This document shows positions 26,025-56,954 of a DNA stretch of 64,000 nt, one piece after another. Below the pieces are notes generated by a model. It ran no database searches. It saw only the letters and a list, made by a program, of their open reading frames with translations, and was not told the origin of the DNA. Positions within the stretch are counted from its first letter, which is position 1. Every line of letters begins with the position of its first letter. The stretch spans positions 599,872 through 663,871 of the forward strand of contig NZ_KZ300476.1 in NCBI RefSeq assembly GCF_002514735.1, in the 5' to 3' direction. This stretch comes from Sediminicola luteus. Its GTDB lineage: Bacteria > Bacteroidota > Bacteroidia > Flavobacteriales > Flavobacteriaceae. The translations under genes were made by a program, and so were the position numbers.

Positions 26025-29000
26025 CTACTCCTTATCGTTGAGCAAGGCCTTTCGAATCCCTTCCAAATGTTGTCCGAAACGGGTGAGCTCACCAACTACA
26101 CGTTCAATTTGTCCGTGACTGCTTTGGGCCGCTTGGGAAAGAAATGTAGTTTTAATGGCATTCCAACGCTCTAGTTCTTCTACGGAAATCACCCCAGCCA
26201 ACTCTTTATACTTTAACAAATTGGCTTCGGCAGCAGCAGTTAAGGTCTGGGATTCGTTTTCGTAATGTCCGTCGATAAGTCCTTGCAGTTCTTCCGGATT
26301 CATTATCGGGATTACCTTGGAAGCCATCTTATTCATATCGCGATAGGAACCTTGTAGCTTAAAGGCCGGTTCTTCGCGATATACATCTTCCATAGAGGCC
26401 GATTTAATATAGGTGGCATTCACCTTTAATACAATATCCCGTACTTGAAGCATTTTGCGCAACACCCCCATATACGCATCGATCTCTTGCGGACTATGGT
26501 TGCCTTGCATTTGAAGCCCCTCTTGACTTTCTTTTTCAATGGCCTCCAATAGCGTATATACATCTTCGTAATGGCTATTGGCCAAATCCCGTAAATACGG
26601 ATTGGAGGTCAGGGCGTTTTCAATTAAACTTAGTTTGAACAAGCGATCGGACCCCCCGATAATATCGCCCAAATTATAGATATCGGCCCGGTTGGCCAAC
26701 ATATCTGGAATCTGGAATTTTTCACCGGATTCGGTATAGGGATTCCCCGCCATGATCACACAGAACTTTTTCCCGCGAAGATCATAGGTCTTGGATTGGC
26801 CGTTATACACTCCTTCAATTTTCCGTTGCCCATCAGCCAAGGAAATGAATTTCTGTAAAAACTCCGGATTACAATGTTGGATGTCGTCTAAATACAACAT
26901 TACATTGTTCTCCATTTCAAAGGCCAGGTTTAACTTTTTCAGTTCCTCTTTGGCCGTTACCGAAGTCGCGGGGCCCGGATCAACGGATACCACATTATGG
27001 CCTATGGCGGGACCATTCACCTTTACAAAGGTCAGCCCCAGTCTGTTGGCCACATATTCCATTAGGGTGGTTTTACCATAACCCGGAGGCGATATCAACA
27101 ACAACATACCCATACGATCGGTACGCTGGTTACCCCCAACCGTACCCAATTGTTTGGCCAGGTTATCGCCAATTAAGGGCAAATACACTTTATCTATCAA
27201 TTGGTTGCGTACAAATGAAGACAACACTTTGGGTTTAAACTCACCCAAGCGCATGGCCGCCCTTTTCTTCCCCACCCATTCCTTGATCTTTAGACGTAAG
27301 TTTTCGAACCCAGGACGGGTATGGGTATCGAAATGCCCTAGGCGCTCCATAAAAGCATGATAGTCGAAGGCGTACCGCCCTTCTGAAATCGACTGATGGT
27401 CGCCCATTAAATTTCCCAAGGAAACTAGGGGGTCGGTGGGGTTACTATGTTTTCCTAATAGGCTTGGGAATAAAAGCAGTCCACACGCCTCCTTTTCGTA
27501 AAAGCTATTTTCCCCTGTCGCTTGTACAAAAGCGCCCAACCATTGCTGTGCCAGCTCCATTTTATCTAGCAAAGAAGCACTTTGGGCTACCCCTTTTTGA
27601 AACAGGGCCTCCTTATCTTTTTCCTTTAAAAATTCAAGAAAACGCTCCTTTAGACCAAGTGCCTGTTGTGATACGGTATAGCCATTTTCCCGCTGCAGTT
27701 CTTTGACCAAATACCCTGCCATTTGCCTGTTATTCTCGGAATCTACCAAGCCAGTGGTTTCCATTAACCCCATAATATCAGCTATGCTTTGATCTAAGGT
27801 ATTGGCATGGGGAAAAAGTTGGGCTATCTGACTTACGCGCATCACCTTTTCCCTGATACTTTTACGTTCAGGCTCTTCCAAGCCGAACCAAAATAGCAGG
27901 GCATTGCTACGAATATCAGGGGTAAAAGTGAGCACTCCTAAGGCCTGATGGGTTCGGTGCAACACCTTTAGGATCTGTAAGGCATCTTGATCATGCACCC
28001 CTTTTATATATCCTTCATTATAATGTTCGATAATATAGTCGGCTATATGCTCCCCTAATGCCTCATCGGACTCCAAACCACTTCCATTCAGGCGTAGAAA
28101 CACCTTATAGGCCAAATATTCGGCCCGGTACACCTTATGGTTCTCACTCGGAATGGATTGCTCCCAAAGTTCTGAGGATGTCGGGTTTTCTTCTAGGATC
28201 CGTTCGTAAAAATTGGTGCCCGATAGATGAAAGTGGGGCGCTCCGTTCCGATACAGCACCGAAAGTTCCAAAGGTTGTCTATTGACACCGAATTTGTGGT
28301 TCCCTAAACGGATACTGTCTTCCCCATCTTCAAACAACTCTTGGCGGTCTTTTAATCGCCTGAGCACTTCCTCCTTCAGGGTTTTTAAACGGGTATCTAA
28401 TTCTTCGGCCTTTCCGCTTTCTTCCATCTCCTGAAGTCGCTCGATCAAATCGTAGGTTTTGCCTACCATGATATCGGAGGCAAAATAGCCATGTATGGCC
28501 TCGGCCTCAGTAAAGGTTTTGGCCTTGGTACCCACCCCTTTTAAAATACGTTCGGCCGATTTTACGATCTGTTGTACTTTTTTGTTGCGTTCCTGCAGTA
28601 AAAAAGCCTTCCGTTCTTCAAAAACATTATACAGATCTTCGCGTTTGGCCCCAATTTCATCTACGAATTCGTCATATTCCGAAAAACGGGCCTCCATTTC
28701 TTCTAGCTGAACCGAAATCTTGGTCAGAAAACCATCGCACTTATCGGCCGTATCGGCGATATCGAGATAATTGATCACACTTTGTTCCAGCAACTTTAAT
28801 TGGGCCCCAAAATCACTTTGCGCCTCCAAAGCCCCCAAACTCTTACGTTTCCCTACCAGTTTGGCCTTGGTTTGGTTGAGTGCGGTAAATATGACCGAAA
28901 TAGCATCGATGATCCGGGCCGTTTGGGTGGCATCTTCTATGTTAAGATTGTTCACCACCTCGATCAACAACTCCAATTCCTCACCAATCTCGGTCAGTTT

Positions 29001-30848
29001 CACTTCAAGGTCTTTGGCCTCAACCACCTTTTTCACCTTGTCGATAGCGGCATGGCATTGCTCCACCTTTTGGGTATACGGATCCAAAGCGGATTCCTTT
29101 AACAGAAACCCAATGCATTGCTGAGAGACCTTTTCATTCTGTTCCACGGCCATTTGATCGATCGCCTCCAATACCCCCATATCTATATAGCGTACCTCTC
29201 GGGTGGCAATGATCTGGCCCCGAAGCTTTCTGAGTTCGGAAAGGGTCTGAACGAATTCTTCAATAGACTTGAACTTGGCGTATTTTATGGTATCGAAAAG
29301 CTGATCGGAACTCGCTTTCAACGCCTTACCCGTGCTGACCGCATTTTTACGAAGGGCCACCACTTTTTCGAACTCGTCTATGGCGGCATCGGCCGTATCT
29401 TTAATGGCTTGTAACGGTTGGTCCAAGCCCCCCGTATCGGCTTCTTTGATCCAATAGTAGGAGTCCAAAATATCCATGGCCTGTTTGGCCAAATCGTCGT
29501 AAAGCCCGTCGTAACTATCTTCTTTTTCGAGCAAATAGATCAGTTCGTGACACTCGGCCATGGCCTTGACGATATCTTTGTTCCCGATTTTAAACACCAA
29601 GGTATCGGCATTGGGGTTTTGGCCCACATCTTGTTTCCCGAAAGGGGTTTGCCAAATTTGCACTACATGGTGTTTGGTGGCATCGGCCTCTGCCTTAAAG
29701 TAACAGAGCTGCCCCTGGGGTAAAATGGTAAAACCATTACAGATTATAGGTGTTTTTACCTGTTGTTCAATGATATTGTAGGGCAATATCAGGTAGACCC
29801 CTTCCTGCTTTTGATAGAAAACGAACAAATGATCTTCGCCATTTGTTGCTTGTATCTGCCCCTGGAACAATACCTGGGGTACGCTTTTTTCAAAACGCTT
29901 AAAAGTACCCGTCTGTAAATAATATCCATTCGGAAACAATAGACCTTGATCGTCGGGTAGGCGTATGGCCGCATCGGCCAGACTATCTACCTTCATCACC
30001 TCTTTTACCTTGTGGTTATAGATAAAATAGCGCGGATCTTCTTGATATGGGGTGATCTTTAAAGGAATAAGATTCCCCAGATCGGCATAGGCATAATCGG
30101 CATCGTCCAAGGTTTGGTCGGCATAGGCTACCGGCTCTTCCAAAATGCCCTGTCCTTCATCGGTATTATCCTCGATTTTTATGGTGAGGTCGCCGCCTAC
30201 CGTTTCTACGAAAACCTTGTCTTCGATAGACACATGGGGGTGTTTACCGTACCTATGCATTTCACGGGGCGGGGTTTGCCAGCGGAACTGATATTGATCG
30301 GGGTACACATATTCGTGATCCGAACGGTTGTCTATGTACTGCAACCCATTATCGCGCACCAACCATTTAAAGGTCTTGATGTCGGTAGGATCTTCGCTCA
30401 CTTGAAAAACCATATGCAAGTAATTACCGATCCTGGCGAACTTGGCGAATATGGTATTTCGGTAATACTTGTACAGATTCTCGAAATCGGTCTGGAACTC
30501 CGTAGAATCGAAAAGGCCCAAATCGATAGGATGAAAATGTCCCTCCCGAAATTCATAGGCACTGAACACATCGGAAATCTCGATCTTGTTCCTTAGCCCA
30601 AAGTGCACATTATAACCGAAAATACATCGATTATCCAAGGCAACAATATCGCGAGCAATGCAATTATTATCCGTATTAATACGGTCATTTGCTATAAGTT
30701 TGAATTCAACGTTACCAAATACATCCTTCCGTTTCTGGTTGAGTTCCTGCAAACGGGTTATCAAATCGGCCTTTTGATCATCTAAACGACTTCGGATAAT
30801 CTCATAGGTGCCTTTCTCAAGCTGATTTTGCGCATGCTCTTGAGCCAT
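26025..30848 (-). CDS. Giant (1607 aa) protein with an uncharacterised ~1200-aa N-terminal region and a C-terminal MoxR/AAA_5-type AAA+ ATPase domain; last gene of the PspA-flotillin operon
   Basis: Uninterrupted ORF with an ATG at 30848. Walker A 'ISPPGYGKTTL' (nt 27066-27083, minus strand). Walker B 'VMLYLDDIQ'. Sensor-1-like 'FCVIMAGNPY'. Arg-finger-like 'ANRAD'. The N-terminus has no recognisable domain, no TM segment and long helical stretches. Confidence 0.85.
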   Translation of the reverse strand: MAQEHAQNQLEKGTYEIIRSRLDDQKADLITRLQELNQKRKDVFGNVEFKLIANDRINTDNNCIARDIVALDNRCIFGYNVHFGLRNKIEISDVFSAYEFREGHFHPIDLGLFDSTEFQTDFENLYKYYRNTIFAKFARIGNYLHMVFQVSEDPTDIKTFKWLVRDNGLQYIDNRSDHEYVYPDQYQFRWQTPPREMHRYGKHPHVSIEDKVFVETVGGDLTIKIEDNTDEGQGILEEPVAYADQTLDDADYAYADLGNLIPLKITPYQEDPRYFIYNHKVKEVMKVDSLADAAIRLPDDQGLLFPNGYYLQTGTFKRFEKSVPQVLFQGQIQATNGEDHLFVFYQKQEGVYLILPYNIIEQQVKTPIICNGFTILPQGQLCYFKAEADATKHHVVQIWQTPFGKQDVGQNPNADTLVFKIGNKDIVKAMAECHELIYLLEKEDSYDGLYDDLAKQAMDILDSYYWIKEADTGGLDQPLQAIKDTADAAIDEFEKVVALRKNAVSTGKALKASSDQLFDTIKYAKFKSIEEFVQTLSELRKLRGQIIATREVRYIDMGVLEAIDQMAVEQNEKVSQQCIGFLLKESALDPYTQKVEQCHAAIDKVKKVVEAKDLEVKLTEIGEELELLIEVVNNLNIEDATQTARIIDAISVIFTALNQTKAKLVGKRKSLGALEAQSDFGAQLKLLEQSVINYLDIADTADKCDGFLTKISVQLEEMEARFSEYDEFVDEIGAKREDLYNVFEERKAFLLQERNKKVQQIVKSAERILKGVGTKAKTFTEAEAIHGYFASDIMVGKTYDLIERLQEMEESGKAEELDTRLKTLKEEVLRRLKDRQELFEDGEDSIRLGNHKFGVNRQPLELSVLYRNGAPHFHLSGTNFYERILEENPTSSELWEQSIPSENHKVYRAEYLAYKVFLRLNGSGLESDEALGEHIADYIIEHYNEGYIKGVHDQDALQILKVLHRTHQALGVLTFTPDIRSNALLFWFGLEEPERKSIREKVMRVSQIAQLFPHANTLDQSIADIMGLMETTGLVDSENNRQMAGYLVKELQRENGYTVSQQALGLKERFLEFLKEKDKEALFQKGVAQSASLLDKMELAQQWLGAFVQATGENSFYEKEACGLLLFPSLLGKHSNPTDPLVSLGNLMGDHQSISEGRYAFDYHAFMERLGHFDTHTRPGFENLRLKIKEWVGKKRAAMRLGEFKPKVLSSFVRNQLIDKVYLPLIGDNLAKQLGTVGGNQRTDRMGMLLLISPPGYGKTTLMEYVANRLGLTFVKVNGPAIGHNVVSVDPGPATSVTAKEELKKLNLAFEMENNVMLYLDDIQHCNPEFLQKFISLADGQRKIEGVYNGQSKTYDLRGKKFCVIMAGNPYTESGEKFQIPDMLANRADIYNLGDIIGGSDRLFKLSLIENALTSNPYLRDLANSHYEDVYTLLEAIEKESQEGLQMQGNHSPQEIDAYMGVLRKMLQVRDIVLKVNATYIKSASMEDVYREEPAFKLQGSYRDMNKMASKVIPIMNPEELQGLIDGHYENESQTLTAAAEANLLKYKELAGVISVEELERWNAIKTTFLSQAAQSSHGQIERVVGELTRFGQHLEGIRKALLNDKE

Positions 30849-30967: not shown

Positions 30968-33034
30968 TTATCCTAGCCTTTTATCGCCCAATCCTAAAGA
31001 ACGGACGATATTGGCCAGGTTTAAAAACTGCTGTTTTTGAGTGTCGTCTGTAGCCTTATCTTGCAGTTGAAGCAACAGATTGGCTATGGTCAGGTTTTTG
31101 ATATCGGTGGAGGTTATACCGTATTCCGAAGCAAAATCACGGATGCGATCCAACAATTGACCTTGGTATTCGCCATCGCCCAATAAGGCCTGTTTTAGAT
31201 CTTGGATGTTTTCAGAATGGTTCACCAATCGGTCGAAACCTTTGGCCTTGGTTATCTGACCAACGATCTGCTCAAAGAACATGCTTTCACCACCCACAAT
31301 ATCGATATTGGAGGCTTTTAAGGCTTCTGCGATAACATGGGCCTGGGCGTCGGCAATATCTTTTTGTATACCGATCTCGGCCAATTCTACCTCTTTCTCT
31401 TTATCGAGACGTAGTTTGAACTCTTCGTGCTCTTTACCAACACCATCCAACTTCTTCATGGCTTCGGCTTTTTCTTCTATACCTGAAGCTTCGGCCACGG
31501 CCTTCTCTTTGATTACTTCGGCTTCGGCCATACCATCTAACTTCTTGGCATCGGCCTTGGCCTTGATACCCGTAGCTTCGGCTAAAGCTGTTTTCTCGAT
31601 AATGGTAGCATCTACGATACCCTGTCGCTCGCTGGCATCGGCCTTGGCATGCATAACTTGTGCTTCCGAAATACCAATGGCAGCCTCTTCTTTGGCGCGG
31701 GCCTCGGCAATGGTCTTACGGGCATCGGCCTCTTTTACGGCAGCCTCTTTTTGGGCTTGTGCCTCGATCAATAACTCTTCGGCCTTTTGACGTGCGGCTT
31801 CTTTTTGGGCCTCTGCCTTTTTCACCTCCATAATCAGGTTTTCTTGGGCGGCTGCCTCGGCATTGGTTACCGTTACCTGCTTTTGACGGTCGGCGCCCTT
31901 AAAGGCCTCTAGATCTTTGATGTTCTCCTGTTCCTCGACCACGTTTTTCTCTAAGGCCACCCGGTCGCGGATCACATCTTGAATGTTTTTCTTCTCTACC
32001 TCAACTACCTTTTCCTTCTCGATTTGGGCCAAGGTTACGATACGCTCGCGCTCGGTAGCTTCCAACATACGGTCCTTCTCTACCCGCTCTGTTTCTACCG
32101 CATCGGTACGTTGCTTGTTCTTGGCCGCCACTATGATCTGGCGATCTTTGTTCTCTTCGGCTACGGCCAATTTCTCATCGGTGGCGATGCGGGCCGTCTC
32201 GCCTTTTAGGCGTTCTTCTTCGGCCACTTTTTGGATCGCCGCATCTTCGCGGGCCTTTATATTGGCTATTTCCCGTTTTTGCTGCTCTTCTTTCTCGGCC
32301 AATTGTTTGTCGAGTTCCAAAATGGCTTCCTGGGCCTCTACATCTTGCTTGCGGATTACTTTCTCCTCTTCCCGTTTGATCAAATTCGATTTCATGTTCT
32401 GGGTAGCGGTAAGCTCCGTGATTTTTTTGATACCCTCGGCATCGAGAATATTGTTCGGACTCAAATGCTGAATGTCGGTCTGTTCCAAATAATCAATAGC
32501 ACAATCGTCCAATACGTATCCGTTCAGATCGGTACCGATAATATCCAATATCTCGTCGCGGAATTCCCTTCGGGCTTCGTATAGCTCTATAAACTGGAAC
32601 TTTTTACCCACGGTTTTTAAGGCTTCCGAGAATTTGGCCTCGAACAGTTCTTCCAAAGTTTTCGATTCGCTGGCCCGGGCACAACCTATGGTTTGGGCCA
32701 CATTGATAATATCTTCCTTGGATTTGTTTACCCGAACAAAGAAAGCTACCTTGATGTCGGCACGCATATTGTCCTTACAGATCAAACCGTCCTTACCCAA
32801 ACGATCGATCTGAATTTTTTTGACCGAGATATCCATCACCTCCACCTTGTGGAAAACCGGAATAACATAAAGCCCCTTGTCAAAGGCTACGGCCGTTCCC
32901 TTGAACCCGGTACGTACCAAGGCCTCCCCTTGTGGGATTTTTTTGTAGAACATGGCTATTAGGGCAAAATAGCCGATGAGCAATACTAGAATGGCACCTA
33001 CCGCCATTCCTACAATCGATAAAATCGTATCCAT
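30968..33034 (-). CDS. Flotillin/SPFH (band-7) family protein with an extended Glu/Ala-rich coiled coil (YqiK-like)
   Basis: N-terminal TM helix 'ILSIVGMAVGAILVLLIGYFALIAMF'. SPFH core ('QGEALVRTGFKGTAVAFDKGLYVIPVFHKVEVMDISVKKIQIDR...'). Then ~350 aa of EA-repeat coiled coil typical of flotillins. Confidence 0.85.
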   Translation of the reverse strand: MDTILSIVGMAVGAILVLLIGYFALIAMFYKKIPQGEALVRTGFKGTAVAFDKGLYVIPVFHKVEVMDISVKKIQIDRLGKDGLICKDNMRADIKVAFFVRVNKSKEDIINVAQTIGCARASESKTLEELFEAKFSEALKTVGKKFQFIELYEARREFRDEILDIIGTDLNGYVLDDCAIDYLEQTDIQHLSPNNILDAEGIKKITELTATQNMKSNLIKREEEKVIRKQDVEAQEAILELDKQLAEKEEQQKREIANIKAREDAAIQKVAEEERLKGETARIATDEKLAVAEENKDRQIIVAAKNKQRTDAVETERVEKDRMLEATERERIVTLAQIEKEKVVEVEKKNIQDVIRDRVALEKNVVEEQENIKDLEAFKGADRQKQVTVTNAEAAAQENLIMEVKKAEAQKEAARQKAEELLIEAQAQKEAAVKEADARKTIAEARAKEEAAIGISEAQVMHAKADASERQGIVDATIIEKTALAEATGIKAKADAKKLDGMAEAEVIKEKAVAEASGIEEKAEAMKKLDGVGKEHEEFKLRLDKEKEVELAEIGIQKDIADAQAHVIAEALKASNIDIVGGESMFFEQIVGQITKAKGFDRLVNHSENIQDLKQALLGDGEYQGQLLDRIRDFASEYGITSTDIKNLTIANLLLQLQDKATDDTQKQQFLNLANIVRSLGLGDKRLG

Positions 33035-33039
33035 TCTCT

Positions 33040-33783
33040 TTATTGGTTTTTATAAGGTTGTACAAAAAATGTATTGGGTTTTTCCCCTTTTTCAATCAGT
33101 AATACCGTGTCTCCGCGGTTTATGGCCTCCCCATTGATAGCATAACCATACACTTTAATCGGGTCGTCTTCGATGACCACTTCTACAAAGCCCATTTTTT
33201 CACCTTGTATGGTCGACAGCATAATACCCCGTCGCCCGATAAGATCCAATGGCGCATCGCCTTGTTCGTTAAAATTCCGGAAGAAGGACTTAAAAGGAGC
33301 GGTAACCCATTTGTTTATGAACAGGGCCGGAAGCAACATGCCCAACATGATGGCAAAACCCAAAATATTGTTATAGGTAAAGGTCATATAGGTACCAAGC
33401 ACACTAAAAAGCCACCAGAACAAGATCAAAAACGACAGGGTGAACAAAAAAGGCAGACCGACGAAGTTGAAATAGATCAAAAATACCTGTAGGTAATTCA
33501 GTTTGCCCCTACGGCGTACATGTTTCTTATCTACTTCTACATTAGAAGCGTCTTCGAACTCAAAGCTATCACCTACTTGGTGGGCCGTATCCAACTCTAT
33601 ATCCGCATCTACATCGGCATCAAAATCGAGCTCTACATCGAAATCGGTGTCTATATTGACCAAATCGGTATCCAAGCCCGCGATAATGGTTATAATCCAG
33701 TACAGCAGACAGAGTCCCAACAAAAGGGTGGGCACCAAATTGACCTGCGAAAAAATGACCTGTGCTACTTCCGATTCGAACAT
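33040..33783 (-). CDS. YqiJ/NfeD-type membrane protein with a C-terminal OB-fold, partner of flotillin
   Basis: N-terminal TM helix, acidic stretch 'DTDFDVELDFDADVDADIELD', a second hydrophobic block, and a C-terminal 'GRRGIMLSTIQGEKMGFVEVVIEDDPIKVYGYAINGEAINRGDTVLLIE' beta-rich NfeD-like domain. Its ATG overlaps the PspA stop (TAATG). Confidence 0.7.
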   Translation of the reverse strand: MFESEVAQVIFSQVNLVPTLLLGLCLLYWIITIIAGLDTDLVNIDTDFDVELDFDADVDADIELDTAHQVGDSFEFEDASNVEVDKKHVRRRGKLNYLQVFLIYFNFVGLPFLFTLSFLILFWWLFSVLGTYMTFTYNNILGFAIMLGMLLPALFINKWVTAPFKSFFRNFNEQGDAPLDLIGRRGIMLSTIQGEKMGFVEVVIEDDPIKVYGYAINGEAINRGDTVLLIEKGEKPNTFFVQPYKNQ

Positions 33784-34493
33784 TAATCTTCTTTGTTAAG
33801 TCCGAGTTGCTCTTTTAACTTATCCAGATCGCTTTGGGCATTGGCCTCAGAAACATCGACGGCCTTGTCGATCTCTTCATCTATGGATTTGTTGGCATTG
33901 GCCATTTCGCCATAGGCTTCGGCCAGGGCTTCTTCCTCAGCCACACGATCTTTCATCTTTTCGAGCAGGCTTACCGTGCCCGAACTATCGATCTCGGCCA
34001 TTTGCTTGTTCAGGTTTTTAGTAGCCTTGCCCACTTTTACACGGGCTTTAAGCGTTTTAAGCTCGTTTTCCCATTTGGTGATATTGGTTCGGATCTGTTT
34101 TACGGCCGATTCGAGTTTTAGCACGGAAGCTTCCATTTTTTCAGATTCTTGCTCGCTTTGTTTTTGGCTTTCCAAAGCCTGCTCTTTTAACAATAAGGCT
34201 TCTTTGGCCAAACGCTCGGCCTCGGTGAGCTCCATATCCCCTTTTTGGGCTTTCTGCAATAAGAGGGTGGCTTTGGAATGGTAGGCCGCAGCCTTGTCTT
34301 TATGCGAGGTAATATCGTTCTTAGATCGTATGGCCAATGCTTTTACCTTGGCCAAGGATTCCAAACCTTTTTCCAGGTCTTCCTTTAGGTCACGAATGCC
34401 TTGCTCGGTCATTTTAATGGGATCTTCCAGTTTATCTATACTGGCATGGGCCTCTGCCTGCCCTATTTTGAATAATCGTTTAAAAAAGTTCAT
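33783..34493 (-). CDS. PspA/IM30 family protein (bacterial ESCRT-III homologue)
   Basis: ATG at 34493 gives 'MNFFKRLFKIGQAEAHASIDKLEDPIKMTEQGIRDLKEDLEKGLESLAKVKA...', the canonical PspA N-terminus. Coiled-coil throughout, ~236 aa. Confidence 0.85.
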   Translation of the reverse strand: MNFFKRLFKIGQAEAHASIDKLEDPIKMTEQGIRDLKEDLEKGLESLAKVKALAIRSKNDITSHKDKAAAYHSKATLLLQKAQKGDMELTEAERLAKEALLLKEQALESQKQSEQESEKMEASVLKLESAVKQIRTNITKWENELKTLKARVKVGKATKNLNKQMAEIDSSGTVSLLEKMKDRVAEEEALAEAYGEMANANKSIDEEIDKAVDVSEANAQSDLDKLKEQLGLNKED

Positions 34494-34497
34494 CGTT

Positions 34498-34893
34498 TTA
34501 TTTTTTTGAAAATGCAATAATTTCTGTTGAATATTCACTCAGCAACAAACTGAGGGAGTTTAAGGAAGCTTCGATCTCATTTTTGTCCAAACTACCTAGT
34601 TGTAGGGTATCCCGAAAGATTACCCCACTACCCTTTTCATCGAGTACAAAGGCCCCGTGTATGATATCACGGTTCTTTTGCAATAACTTTTTGTACACAT
34701 CGCCATGGGTATGGCCCAATTCGCAAATAAATTGTTCCATGATCACAATGGGATAGGCACAACCAATGATCATATTGGTAATCCCTTCATGCTCCTTGTC
34801 TATACGCAAGATGCCTTCTTCGGGATTCTCGTATGAAATGGTATAATCGAGTTCTAACAGAAACCCTTTTAATACTTGAAAGTGGTTCTTCAT
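34498..34893 (-). CDS. YbjN-domain protein (frequent PspA-associated partner)
   Basis: 131 aa. The pattern 'ISYENPEEGILRIDKEHEGITNMIIGCAYPIVIM...FVLDEKGSGVIFRDTLQLGSLDKNEIE' fits the YbjN/type-III-chaperone-like fold. Ends 4 nt before the PspA start. Confidence 0.6.
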   Translation of the reverse strand: MKNHFQVLKGFLLELDYTISYENPEEGILRIDKEHEGITNMIIGCAYPIVIMEQFICELGHTHGDVYKKLLQKNRDIIHGAFVLDEKGSGVIFRDTLQLGSLDKNEIEASLNSLSLLLSEYSTEIIAFSKK

Positions 34894-35157
34894 TGTTGGT
34901 TATCTTTTGATGCCCTATCAAAATTTAAGACCATTATCGGTATACTTGATCCAGCATCGAATTGACTATAAATATATTGGTTCACATTCAGAAGAAAAAC
35001 TAAATTAGACAAACTGTCTTATGCTCGATTTTTCTAGGGCCCAGTGAAGCCTGATTAGGTCAAATACAAAATGTTCGCGAATTATTTTGTATTATTGCTA
35101 ATAACGTTAACAATATTAGAGCAAAATATTCAGTTTTGCAAATTTTATTAGCATTTT
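34894..35157. promoter_or_regulatory. Divergent promoter/operator region between the PspA-flotillin operon and a LexA-like regulator gene
   Basis: AT-rich 264-bp spacer. It contains 9-bp inverted repeat arms TGCTAATAA (35097-35105) and TTATTAGCA (35145-35153), plus an imperfect palindrome centred on GTTAAC (35106-35111). Confidence 0.5.
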
Positions 35158-35919
35158 ATGTCCTGCTTCGGTAAAAACATCAAAAAAATAAGGAAACTCC
35201 AAGGGATGAGCCAATTGGAATTCGGGCAGCTGTTCGATTTAAAACGGGCTACTTTGGGGGCCTATGAGGAAGGACGCAGTGAACCCAAGATCGAAACACT
35301 TATCAAAGTTGCTAACCATTTTAGCATATCGATTGACAAATTGTTGACCCAGGACCTATCTATAAACGAGCTTCTCAATTTTAGAACTGACCTGACCGGT
35401 GAAGCCCACAGCATTGAAACCAAGATGCTCAGTAAAATACCCTTGATAAGTCATGCCAATTTAGGCAAACTCAAACCCGATTCTTTTAAAAAGGACGATT
35501 TTAACCTTCAGATTGCCTTACCCTCACTTTCCGACCAGGATTATTATGCCTTTGAGGTTTTGGATGTGGCCATGAGCCAAAACAACCACGGGGTGTTTCC
35601 TAAAGATTTGGTCATTGGCAGTGTTGCCGAATTGGACAACTTGAATACTTCGGATTGGTATGTATGGATTTTGGAAGACCGTTACCTCATCCGTAAGTTC
35701 ATAGCGATTACCGATGGTGACATTCAAATACAAGCCATACATAGGGGAATGCCGGAAGAACAGATCGCCATTTCGGAAGTATCCCGTCTTTTTAAGGTGA
35801 ACAGTATCGTACGTCATAATTTCTCGTATGGCGAAACGGAATTGGAGACCCGACTACATCAATTGGAATCCTTGATCAAAGAAACCCCTCCCCCTAAAAA
35901 GACACCAACCCACAAATAG
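35158..35919 (+). CDS. LexA/phage-repressor-like regulator: N-terminal XRE-HTH plus C-terminal S24-peptidase-like domain
   Basis: 'KKIRKLQGMSQLEFGQLFDLKRATLGAYEEGRSEPKIETLIKVANHFSISIDKL' is an HTH_XRE sequence. The C-terminal half ('AFEVLDVAMSQ...LVIG...YLIRKF') resembles the LexA/CI autoproteolytic fold, with candidate Ser and Lys residues. Confidence 0.65.
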   Translation: MSCFGKNIKKIRKLQGMSQLEFGQLFDLKRATLGAYEEGRSEPKIETLIKVANHFSISIDKLLTQDLSINELLNFRTDLTGEAHSIETKMLSKIPLISHANLGKLKPDSFKKDDFNLQIALPSLSDQDYYAFEVLDVAMSQNNHGVFPKDLVIGSVAELDNLNTSDWYVWILEDRYLIRKFIAITDGDIQIQAIHRGMPEEQIAISEVSRLFKVNSIVRHNFSYGETELETRLHQLESLIKETPPPKKTPTHK

Positions 35920-54956: not shown

Positions 54957-56954
54957 ATGAAATTCAAGGTCGTATCTAAATTTAAACCAACGGGTGATCA
55001 GCCCCAGGCCATTGCCCAATTGGCCGAAGGTATTAAAAGTGAGGTCCCCCATCAGGTATTGCTAGGGGTTACGGGCTCCGGTAAAACCTTTACTGTGGCC
55101 AACGTAGTGGCATCGGTGCAACGCCCCACACTTGTGTTGGCACATAACAAAACCTTGGCAGCACAGTTATACTCCGAATTCAAGGCTTTTTTTCCGGAGA
55201 ATGCCGTAGAGTATTTTGTTTCATACTACGACTATTACCAGCCCGAAGCCTACATTCCCACTTCGGGCACCTATATCGAAAAAGACCTTTCGATAAACGA
55301 GGATATTGAAAAATTAAGACTCAGCGCCACTTCTGCCCTATTATCGGGGCGGCGCGATGTTTTGGTTGTGGCCTCGGTTTCTTGTCTTTATGGTATCGGG
55401 AACCCTGTGGAATTCCAGAAAAATGTGATCCAAATCAAAAGGGACCAGGTAATCTCGCGCACCAAATTTTTGCATAAATTGGTCCAAAGCCTTTATGCAC
55501 GCACCACCGCCGAGTTTAAAAACGGAAACTTTAGGATCAAAGGCGATGTGGTCGATGTTTTTCCGGGTTATGCCGATCATGCCTTTCGTATCCATTTTTT
55601 TGGAGATGAAATCGAGGAAATCGAAGCCTTTGACCCGTATAACAATAACGTAATCGAGAAGTATGAACAACTCAATATTTATCCGGCCAATCTGTTCGTT
55701 ACCTCACAGGATGTGATGCAAAACGCCATTCATCAGATACAAGACGACATGATGAAACAGGTAGCCTATTTTAAGGAAATTGGAAAACACCTTGAAGCCA
55801 AGAGATTGGAAGAACGTACCACTTTCGACCTGGAAATGATCCGGGAACTGGGCTATTGTTCCGGTATTGAAAACTACTCCCGCTATATGGACGGCAGGGA
55901 GGCCGGCACCCGCCCCTTCTGTCTGCTCGATTATTTTCCGGATGACTTTCTTATGGTCATCGACGAAAGCCATGTCACCTTACCGCAGGTGCATGCCATG
56001 TATGGCGGTGACCGTTCCCGTAAAGAGAATTTGGTAGAGTACGGTTTTAGATTGCCGGCAGCCATGGATAACCGCCCCTTAAAATTCGAGGAATTCGAAA
56101 TGTTACAAAACCAGGTACTTTACGTAAGTGCCACACCAGCCGACTACGAACTGGACTTGGCCGAAGGTGTTTTCACCGAACAGATCATTAGACCTACCGG
56201 CCTCCTGGATCCCATAATCGAAGTACGACCCAGTCTAAACCAAATCGATGATTTGATTGAGGAAATACAGCAGCGTGTTGAAATCGATGAGCGGGTTTTG
56301 ATAACCACCCTTACTAAGCGCATGGCCGAAGAACTAGCCAAATACCTTACACGGATAGAAGTACGCTGTCGTTACATACATAGCGATGTAGACACCTTGG
56401 AACGGGTAGAGATTATGCAAGATTTAAGAAAAGGACTTTTCGATGTTTTGATCGGTGTTAACCTATTGCGAGAAGGACTTGACCTGCCCGAAGTATCGTT
56501 GGTAGCTATATTGGACGCCGACAAGGAAGGTTTTTTACGTAGTACCCGGTCCTTGACCCAAACCGTGGGCCGTGCCGCCAGAAACCTCAACGGAAAAGCC
56601 ATTATGTATGCTGATAAAGTAACCCGAAGCATGCAAGAAACAATCGATGCTACCAATTACCGCCGGGAAAAACAGATTAATTACAATACTGAAAACAACA
56701 TTACCCCAAAAGCCCTGGAAAAGGAACTGACCAACATCTTGACCAAAGAAAAGGCTGCGTATACCCCGATAGGTATGGAAAACCGTAAAGCGGCCGAACC
56801 CGACACGGCCTATTTAAGTAAGGAACAACTGGAAAAGCTAATCCGCGAAAAACGTAAACTGATGGAAGCCGCCGCCAAGGAATTGGATTTCATAGAGGCC
56901 GCCCGTTTTCGAGATGAAATCAAGCAACTAAAAGCCCAAGTAACCGAACTTTAA
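54957..56954 (+). CDS. uvrB: Excinuclease ABC subunit B
   Basis: Walker A 'GVTGSGKTFT', the beta-hairpin region, helicase motifs ('VIDESH', 'LREGLDLPEVSLVAILDADKEGFLRS') and the C-terminal UvrB/UvrC interaction helix 'ARFRDEIKQLK'. Confidence 0.95.
   Translation: MKFKVVSKFKPTGDQPQAIAQLAEGIKSEVPHQVLLGVTGSGKTFTVANVVASVQRPTLVLAHNKTLAAQLYSEFKAFFPENAVEYFVSYYDYYQPEAYIPTSGTYIEKDLSINEDIEKLRLSATSALLSGRRDVLVVASVSCLYGIGNPVEFQKNVIQIKRDQVISRTKFLHKLVQSLYARTTAEFKNGNFRIKGDVVDVFPGYADHAFRIHFFGDEIEEIEAFDPYNNNVIEKYEQLNIYPANLFVTSQDVMQNAIHQIQDDMMKQVAYFKEIGKHLEAKRLEERTTFDLEMIRELGYCSGIENYSRYMDGREAGTRPFCLLDYFPDDFLMVIDESHVTLPQVHAMYGGDRSRKENLVEYGFRLPAAMDNRPLKFEEFEMLQNQVLYVSATPADYELDLAEGVFTEQIIRPTGLLDPIIEVRPSLNQIDDLIEEIQQRVEIDERVLITTLTKRMAEELAKYLTRIEVRCRYIHSDVDTLERVEIMQDLRKGLFDVLIGVNLLREGLDLPEVSLVAILDADKEGFLRSTRSLTQTVGRAARNLNGKAIMYADKVTRSMQETIDATNYRREKQINYNTENNITPKALEKELTNILTKEKAAYTPIGMENRKAAEPDTAYLSKEQLEKLIREKRKLMEAAAKELDFIEAARFRDEIKQLKAQVTEL

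Follow-up and report, generated by a model that had tools for sequence, protein, structure and literature searches.

A probable operator-promoter region shared by a lambda CI-like regulator and a CesT–PspA–flotillin operon in Flavobacteriaceae

The 264-bp spacer at positions 34894-35157 of the window, as we call the whole 64-kb stretch of Sediminicola luteus DNA analyzed here, is probably the operator-promoter region of a chromosomal, lambda CI-like repressor that combines an XRE helix-turn-helix (HTH) with an apparently dead S24-fold domain and is dedicated to the adjacent CesT–PspA–NfeD-like–flotillin–AAA+ operon. This divergent intergenic region, to which we assign no strand, has a GC content of 0.30, compared to 0.44 for the window. 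An earlier note, made from the letters of the DNA alone, had taken it for a divergent control region, and the conserved sites described below agree with that assignment.

The regulator gene (35158..35919, plus strand) encodes a 253-aa protein with an HTH_3 domain at residues 8-62, a linker helix, a beta domain of the LexA/CI fold at about residues 91-218, and a C-terminal helix at residues 228-241. Pfam detected HTH_3 (PF01381; E 2e-13; 50.5 bits against a cutoff of 23) as the sole match for the whole protein, and neither Pfam nor NCBIfam returned anything for the C-terminal domain. The S24 family PF00717 gave no match to the window regulator, even at E=10 with the C-terminal domain alone; among the relatives listed, 9 of 120 carried a precomputed PF00717 match. 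LexA matches in a sequence profile search of the PDB were marginal, with E of 0.05-1. The LexA/CI-type (S24 beta-fold) C-terminal domain was instead identified by structure, and the architecture that the earlier note had proposed, an XRE HTH followed by a LexA/CI-type domain, thus holds, its first part by Pfam and its second by structure. Structural neighbors of the regulator include Rep–Ant of a Salmonella phage (5d50), TP901-1 CI–MOR (6tri), and SinR–SinI (1b0n). As PADLOC gave only generic HTH matches, the protein does not appear to belong to a known defence system. We found no exact record of the window regulator in the protein collection.

On the other side of the spacer, five co-directional genes occupy the minus strand. 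The first encodes a CesT_Tir_1/YbjN-like chaperone of 131 aa (34498..34893; PF22550, E 3e-52). It is followed by genes for a PspA/IM30 family protein of 251 aa (33783..34538; PF04012); a membrane protein of 247 aa (33040..33783) with hydrophobic segments and a beta-rich C terminus; an SPFH/Band-7 flotillin-like protein of 688 aa (30968..33034; PF01145); and a 1607-aa protein that joins DUF3686 and DUF7902 to an AAA+ ATPase (26025..30848; PF12458 with PF00004). Pfam gave no match for the membrane protein, which occurs in 74 of 80 related loci and which, read from its sequence by eye, looks NfeD/YqiJ/YuaF-like. The longest PspA open reading frame starts at a GTG and shares 41 nt (34498-34538) with the end of the CesT-like gene. 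Because of this overlap, the true PspA start is uncertain and may lie further downstream.

The gene content of this operon matches a published operon class, CesT/Tir–PspA–band-7/flotillin–AAA+–YqiJ/YuaF (Ravi et al., 2024, mSystems, PMC11237479). From Pfam, the order and overlaps of the genes, and the sequence of the membrane protein, we found in the window operon all components of the class as the searched portion of that paper gives them. That portion of the text names no transcription factor for the CesT–PspA operon and mentions neither S24 nor LexA, and its mentions of "cHTH" and "repressor" all concern ClgR or a cited reference. Compared to the operon class as given there, the regulator and the operators described here are additions.

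The window itself is from Flavobacteriaceae, as its UvrB is 100% identical to the Sediminicola luteus protein and 84-85% identical to those of Maribacter and Muricauda. Relatives of the regulator form a Flavobacteriaceae family of proteins about 250 aa long (721 matches, about 40% identical to the window protein). We fetched 80 genome loci via the regulator and used 80 metagenome loci, which contain no relative closer than 43% identity, as a replication set only. The CesT-like gene was divergent from the regulator in 80 of 80 genome loci and in all 66 of the metagenome loci that had enough upstream sequence to test. The genes for PspA, the membrane protein, flotillin, and the ATPase lay within the flank in 73-77 of the 80 genome loci, while the genes found downstream of the regulator in the window were there in none of the 80. 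Since the divergent arrangement is constant and the downstream genes are not conserved, the regulator is tied to the operon and not to its other neighbors.

Within the spacer, the earlier note had described a perfect 9-bp inverted repeat whose arms are 40 bp apart. The gap and the right arm (TTATTAGCA, 35145-35153) are as described, and the left arm (TGCTAATAA) lies at 35096-35104 rather than at 35097-35105. This 9-mer has only two occurrences in 64 kb, both in the spacer. As dinucleotide shuffling of the AT-rich spacer yields an equally long or longer perfect inverted repeat in 29% of cases, the repeat alone is not significant. When the spacers of related loci were stacked, the two arms, which the note had paired as one repeat, proved to be the outer halves of two separate 17-bp palindromes. 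One, which we call O2 (TGCTAATAACGTTAACA, 35096..35112), has TGCTAATAA as its left half; the other, O1 (TGCAAATTTTATTAGCA, 35137..35153), has TTATTAGCA as its right half and ends 4 nt before the regulator ATG. Each matches the family-derived consensus TGCTAA-N5-TTAGCA at 11 of 12 positions. A search with this symmetric consensus uncovered a third site, Oin (TGCTAACCATTTTAGCA, 35310..35326), a perfect 12/12 match within the regulator coding sequence that spans codons 51-57 (V-A-N-H-F-S-I). Like O1 and O2, Oin is given no strand; the earlier note had missed it.

With up to one mismatch allowed, the consensus has exactly three matches in the 64-kb window, all within 231 bp at the regulator locus, against 0.14 expected; none of 100 shuffles reached three. 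The sites are also widely conserved. O1, whose family form is TGCAAAT-N3-ATTAGCA, was present in 81 of 81 genome loci and in all 79 testable metagenome loci, and in these 81 and 79 loci the distance from its end to the regulator start codon was 3-5 nt, with a single locus at 8. Homologues of O2 (nGCTAAT-N3-nTTAG) occurred in 78 of 81 genome loci and 54 of 79 metagenome loci, and in loci having O2 the O2-O1 distance was always 41-42 bp, start to start. Oin was found in 81 of 81 genome loci and 80 of 80 metagenome loci. Since the consensus matches cluster at this locus and are conserved in 160 related loci, we regard the half-sites as real; alignment of orthologous spacers, the check that the earlier note had suggested, supports its view of them as parts of operators. 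The 17-bp palindromes are probably bound by dimers of the regulator.

Codons 52-56 are frozen across Oin: Ala52 is GCT and Phe55 is TTT in 81 of 81 loci, and Ser56 is AGC in 78 of 81. Elsewhere in the regulator gene, Ser, Ala, and Phe codons are not fixed across these loci: AGT predominates at Ser18 and Ser41 (67:14 and 61:20), and the other alanines are encoded by GCT in only 30-70% of cases. To judge from the frozen synonymous positions, Oin is constrained at the DNA level.

Motif matches within ±3 kb of the regulator fell at five fixed positions only: -156, -96, about -62, about -21, and +152. The distal operators at -96 and -156 are both absent from the window, where we rejected the sole candidate for a distal operator O3, ATTAGGT at 35054, as poor and mis-spaced. 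Among the relatives (L001-L080), extra operator copies occur at -96 in about 50 loci and at -156, relative to the regulator ATG, in 28 loci; the latter appear to be Aquimarina, judged from example sequences. In three loci, from Polaribacter irgensii (L016), Flavicella (L035), and Urechidicola (L038), the spacer is only 120-178 nt long and retains O1 without O2; these loci may represent a natural minimal version of the control region. In a 92%-identical relative of the window (L081), the operators differ only at O2 position 10, within the central N5, and at O1 position 1, where T is replaced by A. In other loci, the first position of O2 and of Oin alternates between T and A in the same way. As the DNA of L081 is 97% identical to that of the window, this locus tells us nothing about constraint.

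An imperfect palindrome around GTTAAC, also reported in the earlier note, is present (CTAATAACGTT/AACAATATTAG, 35098-35119, with GTTAAC at 35106-35111). Its right arm, ATATTAGAGCA, is not conserved as an operator half-site and coincides with the -7 box of the predicted operon promoter on the minus strand. We also observed a perfect 10-bp inverted repeat (AATACAAAAT/ATTTTGTATT, 35063-35072 and 35084-35093), longer than the 9-bp repeat, unrelated to it, and overlooked in the earlier note. Considered as a leader hairpin in the predicted operon RNA, the 35063-35093 repeat gave a weak fold (-8.1 kcal/mol, z -1.3), and this candidate was set aside. Rfam reported no RNA family anywhere in the 64-kb window.

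Consensus boxes at a fixed position across loci predict a sigma-A promoter of the Bacteroidetes type for the operon (35106..35142, minus strand). In the window, its -33 element, TTTG at 35142..35139, lies inside O1 and is separated by a 20-nt spacer from the -7 element, TAATATTG at 35118..35111, which shares 2 nt (35111-35112) with the right end of O2. At a fixed operon-strand position, the pattern TTTG-N19-TAnnTTT[AG] was found in 78 of 81 loci and, as TTTG-N19/20-TAnnTTT[AG], in 79 of 81. In Flavobacterium, the -7 box spans -12..-5 (PMC9723704), and from this geometry we infer that operon transcription starts at about 35106, inside O2. A scan with the sigma-70 consensus, which is the wrong promoter type for Bacteroidetes, gave no more matches than shuffled sequences and was discarded.

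The regulator's own promoter is placed with less confidence. A TTTTGTATTATTG motif on the plus strand (35085..35097) contains a candidate -7 box, TATTATTG (35090-35097), from which the predicted start would be near 35102, in O2. With the alternative candidate, CAGTTTTG at 35131-35138, the predicted start would be in O1. With either candidate, one of the two operators, O2 or O1, would coincide with the start or follow it closely. In 58 of 80 relatives, the minus strand carries a near-invariant motif, TTTTGTAnTATTG, at 30-60 nt before the start of the CesT gene, without a conserved -33 box. The only copy in the window is on the opposite strand (35085-35097, plus), where it abuts O2 and lies 60 nt before the regulator ATG. 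This motif may represent a further promoter or be recognized by another factor. In the relatives, it could be the main operon promoter, outside the operators, in which case control might be by looping, or partial.

Two further results support the earlier note's suggestion that the operon is not under the classical PspF/sigma-54 circuit. Pfam found HTH_3 and no enhancer-binding AAA+ domain in the regulator, and the sigma-54 -24/-12 pattern (TGGCAC-N5-TTGC, up to two mismatches) had no match in 34894-35157. Over the whole window, the same pattern had 76 matches, none of them in the spacer, compared to 49 ± 8 in shuffles; this excess is probably an effect of composition or codon usage.

From the sites and the predicted promoters, we propose the following mechanism. 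Dimers of the regulator would bind O1, O2, and Oin, together with O3 and O4 in relatives, through the shared palindromic consensus. O1 lies over the operon promoter's predicted -33 box and the final bases ahead of the regulator start codon. O2, 41 bp or about four helical turns from O1, would cover the predicted operon start, and Oin lies 173 bp downstream of O1 in the regulator coding sequence. With O1 and O2 occupied, the operon promoter and the regulator's own promoter would both be shut, resulting in repression and negative autoregulation. The C-terminal domain and terminal helix would serve dimerization, possibly cooperativity or looping, and reception of the signal. We do not favor a simple O1-Oin loop, as 173 bp corresponds to a half-integral number of helical turns. 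Under envelope stress, the repressor would be inactivated by contact with a protein, such as the CesT-like chaperone of the operon or PspA. Given the analogies with PspA-PspF, Rep-Ant, CI-MOR, and SinR-SinI, we infer that protein contact is the most likely route of induction. In the most specific form of this proposal, Flavobacteriaceae would govern a membrane-repair operon, with its ESCRT-III-like PspA, through a CI-like repressor with a pseudo-protease sensor that is freed by partner switching with the CesT-like protein or PspA and acts on three to five operators, including an intragenic one that freezes codons; we offer this form tentatively and consider it less likely than not.

The earlier note had favored a different switch, namely a self-cleaving repressor of the LexA/CI type in which autocleavage, set off by DNA damage (RecA*) or alkaline pH, would release the PspA-flotillin operon from repression. 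The LexA/CI fold of the C-terminal domain, the weak PF00717 matches of a few family members, and the Ser140 and L102-G103 of the window protein are in its favor, as is the Pfam label of DUF3686 in the operon ATPase, "ATPase involved in DNA repair." However, the catalytic Ser/Lys dyad, whose absence the note had said would refute its model, is missing across the family. When we aligned the family with hhalign to E. coli LexA and with HMMER to LexA, UmuD, and lambda CI, Arg179 fell opposite the general-base lysine (LexA K156, UmuD K97, lambda CI K192) and was Arg in 172 of 172 distinct members. Substitutions of LexA K156 reportedly abolish or severely slow cleavage (Slilaty & Little, 1987; Lin & Little, 1989). 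The candidate nucleophile column 140, which hhalign places opposite LexA S119, is mixed (Thr 102, Ser 52, Val 12, Ala 5, Gly 1), although the window regulator itself has Ser140; alternative alignments point to column 138 (Glu; Ala in the window) or, with HMMER, column 147 (Tyr/Phe). Because the counterpart of S119 varies with the alignment, we put weight on a test that is independent of the LexA alignment: Ser does not exceed 53% of members in any column of the C-terminal domain. The positions equivalent to the Ala/Cys-Gly cleavage site that follows the conserved P-L-V-G strand, 102-103, are variable across the family, and the window has Leu-Gly (L102-G103) opposite A84-G85. The window protein has no Pfam S24 match, and the operon products, going by the part of Ravi et al. 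(2024; PMC11237479) that was searched, are membrane-associated and not DNA-repair proteins. As the repressor is without self-cleaving machinery, a LexA-style DNA-damage switch is unlikely, and the S24-fold domain is, on this alignment evidence, probably catalytically dead. We consider the self-cleavage explanation as a whole very improbable, and the note's inference of a repressor cleaved on a damage signal is not sustained.

Another explanation with a small probability of its own keeps the regulator and its sites and changes the sign: the protein would be mainly an activator of the operon, like ClgR at mycobacterial pspA or lambda CI at P_RM, with O1 recruiting RNA polymerase and O2 and Oin serving autoregulation. 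Lambda CI activates and represses from adjacent 17-bp sites, which is a precedent for such dual action. The center of O1 falls near -39 in the operon promoter, some 39 bp before the predicted start, and this class II position is also compatible with activation. In actinobacteria, the cro-like HTH regulator ClgR is encoded with pspA, according to the searched text of PMC11237479. Yet O2 lies over the predicted +1 and abuts the -7 box, while O1 lies over the -33 box, which is the typical geometry of repression. Moreover, with its perfect -33 TTTG and a spacing of 19-20 nt, the predicted promoter should need no activator. We therefore think it unlikely that the regulator is mainly an activator. 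It is more doubtful still that the palindromes are not sites of this regulator at all and instead represent promoter elements or sites for another factor, with mere synteny accounting for their adjacency. O1 overlaps the -33 TTTG as well as -7-like boxes on both strands, and at this site promoter and operator conservation are therefore confounded. Against this stands Oin, where the same 17-bp palindrome lies in a coding sequence that needs no promoter and shows synonymous-site constraint. In addition, the sites occur only around the regulator gene, and the HTH and the sites are co-conserved in all 161 loci, against a changing set of genes on the regulator's other flank.

A last alternative concerns the Sediminicola-like lineage alone. 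The HTH domain of the window regulator is 73% identical to its relatives, and as the conserved part of the protein it fits the invariant operator sequence, while the C-terminal domain is only 24% identical. The relatives are 48% identical to one another over this domain (residues 93-253). The window protein departs from the consensus at 11 of 21 conserved positions of the domain, including W212F and R221N, although the window UvrB (54957-56954) is 84-85% identical to those of Maribacter and Muricauda. In this lineage, the sensor domain might have decayed or been re-purposed, leaving a constitutive autoregulated repressor or one that responds to a different cue. The absence of O3, the altered O2, and the strand switch of the TTTTGTAnTATTG motif point the same way. 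On the other hand, the reading frame is intact, the fold is predicted with fair confidence, the core residues P95, P122, G145, P148, D150, R179, and H195 are retained, and the 92%-identical relative has the same layout. As the C-terminal domain is an outlier, the window regulator may behave differently from the rest of its family; we judge outright decay or re-purposing of the sensor improbable. An operator-promoter region for a dedicated, non-cleaving CI-like repressor remains our preferred reading of the spacer.

Some of what this reading invokes is already known. The operon class has been published, and an HTH with an S24 fold, 17-bp operators, and divergent promoters together make up classical CI logic. 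In our literature searches, we did not find descriptions of a CI-like regulator at the PspA/flotillin operon across Flavobacteriaceae, of dyad loss throughout such a family, or of an intragenic operator that freezes codons; searches on DUF3686, on Flavobacteria with PspA, flotillin, and HTH, and on LexA K156R returned nothing usable. If the proposal is true, it would add a fourth regulatory solution for Psp systems to PspF/sigma-54, LiaRS, and ClgR. The CesT–PspA–flotillin–AAA+ operon is widespread and known from comparative genomics only, and a defined putative repressor with a 17-bp operator and a predicted promoter would provide a direct experimental handle on the stress that induces it. 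In nature, the locus offers a clean case of an S24 protease domain that persists as an apparently non-catalytic module, all members having Arg in place of the Lys, and likewise of an operator whose position in a coding sequence leaves a visible constraint on synonymous codons. It also guards against a tempting mis-annotation: here, "LexA-like" does not imply SOS control.

Among known systems, one that is close in layout is lambda CI at OR/OL, which likewise pairs HTH_3 with an S24-fold C-terminal domain and has multiple palindromic operators of ~17 bp beside the repressor gene, in a divergent promoter region. Unlike lambda CI, the regulator described here is encoded on the chromosome, next to this operon in each of the related loci that we examined, with no prophage context seen. 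In addition, its catalytic Lys is an invariant Arg, it has no conserved Ser or Ala-Gly site, it carries an extra C-terminal helix, its predicted target is the PspA/flotillin operon, and one of its operators lies in its own coding sequence. It differs from LexA in having an XRE HTH in place of the LexA winged helix, in lacking the Ser/Lys dyad and cleavage site, and in having a single local operon, not a repair regulon, as its predicted target. In the actinobacterial ClgR–PspA(MN) system, ClgR is small and consists of a single domain, with no S24-like module, and the operon partners differ. Rep–Ant, CI–MOR, and SinR–SinI resemble the proposed system in that HTH_3 repressors are induced by the binding of a protein and not by self-cleavage, although the candidate partners here, the CesT-like chaperone and PspA, are unrelated to Ant, MOR, and SinI. 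PspF is a sigma-54 enhancer-binding AAA+ activator, whereas the locus described here has neither such a domain nor a -24/-12 element, and its geometry points to repression of a sigma-A-type promoter. Nonetheless, in the PspF–PspA system of Gammaproteobacteria, too, the regulator gene and the pspA operon diverge from a common promoter region, and negative feedback through a product of the operon is a plausible analogy.
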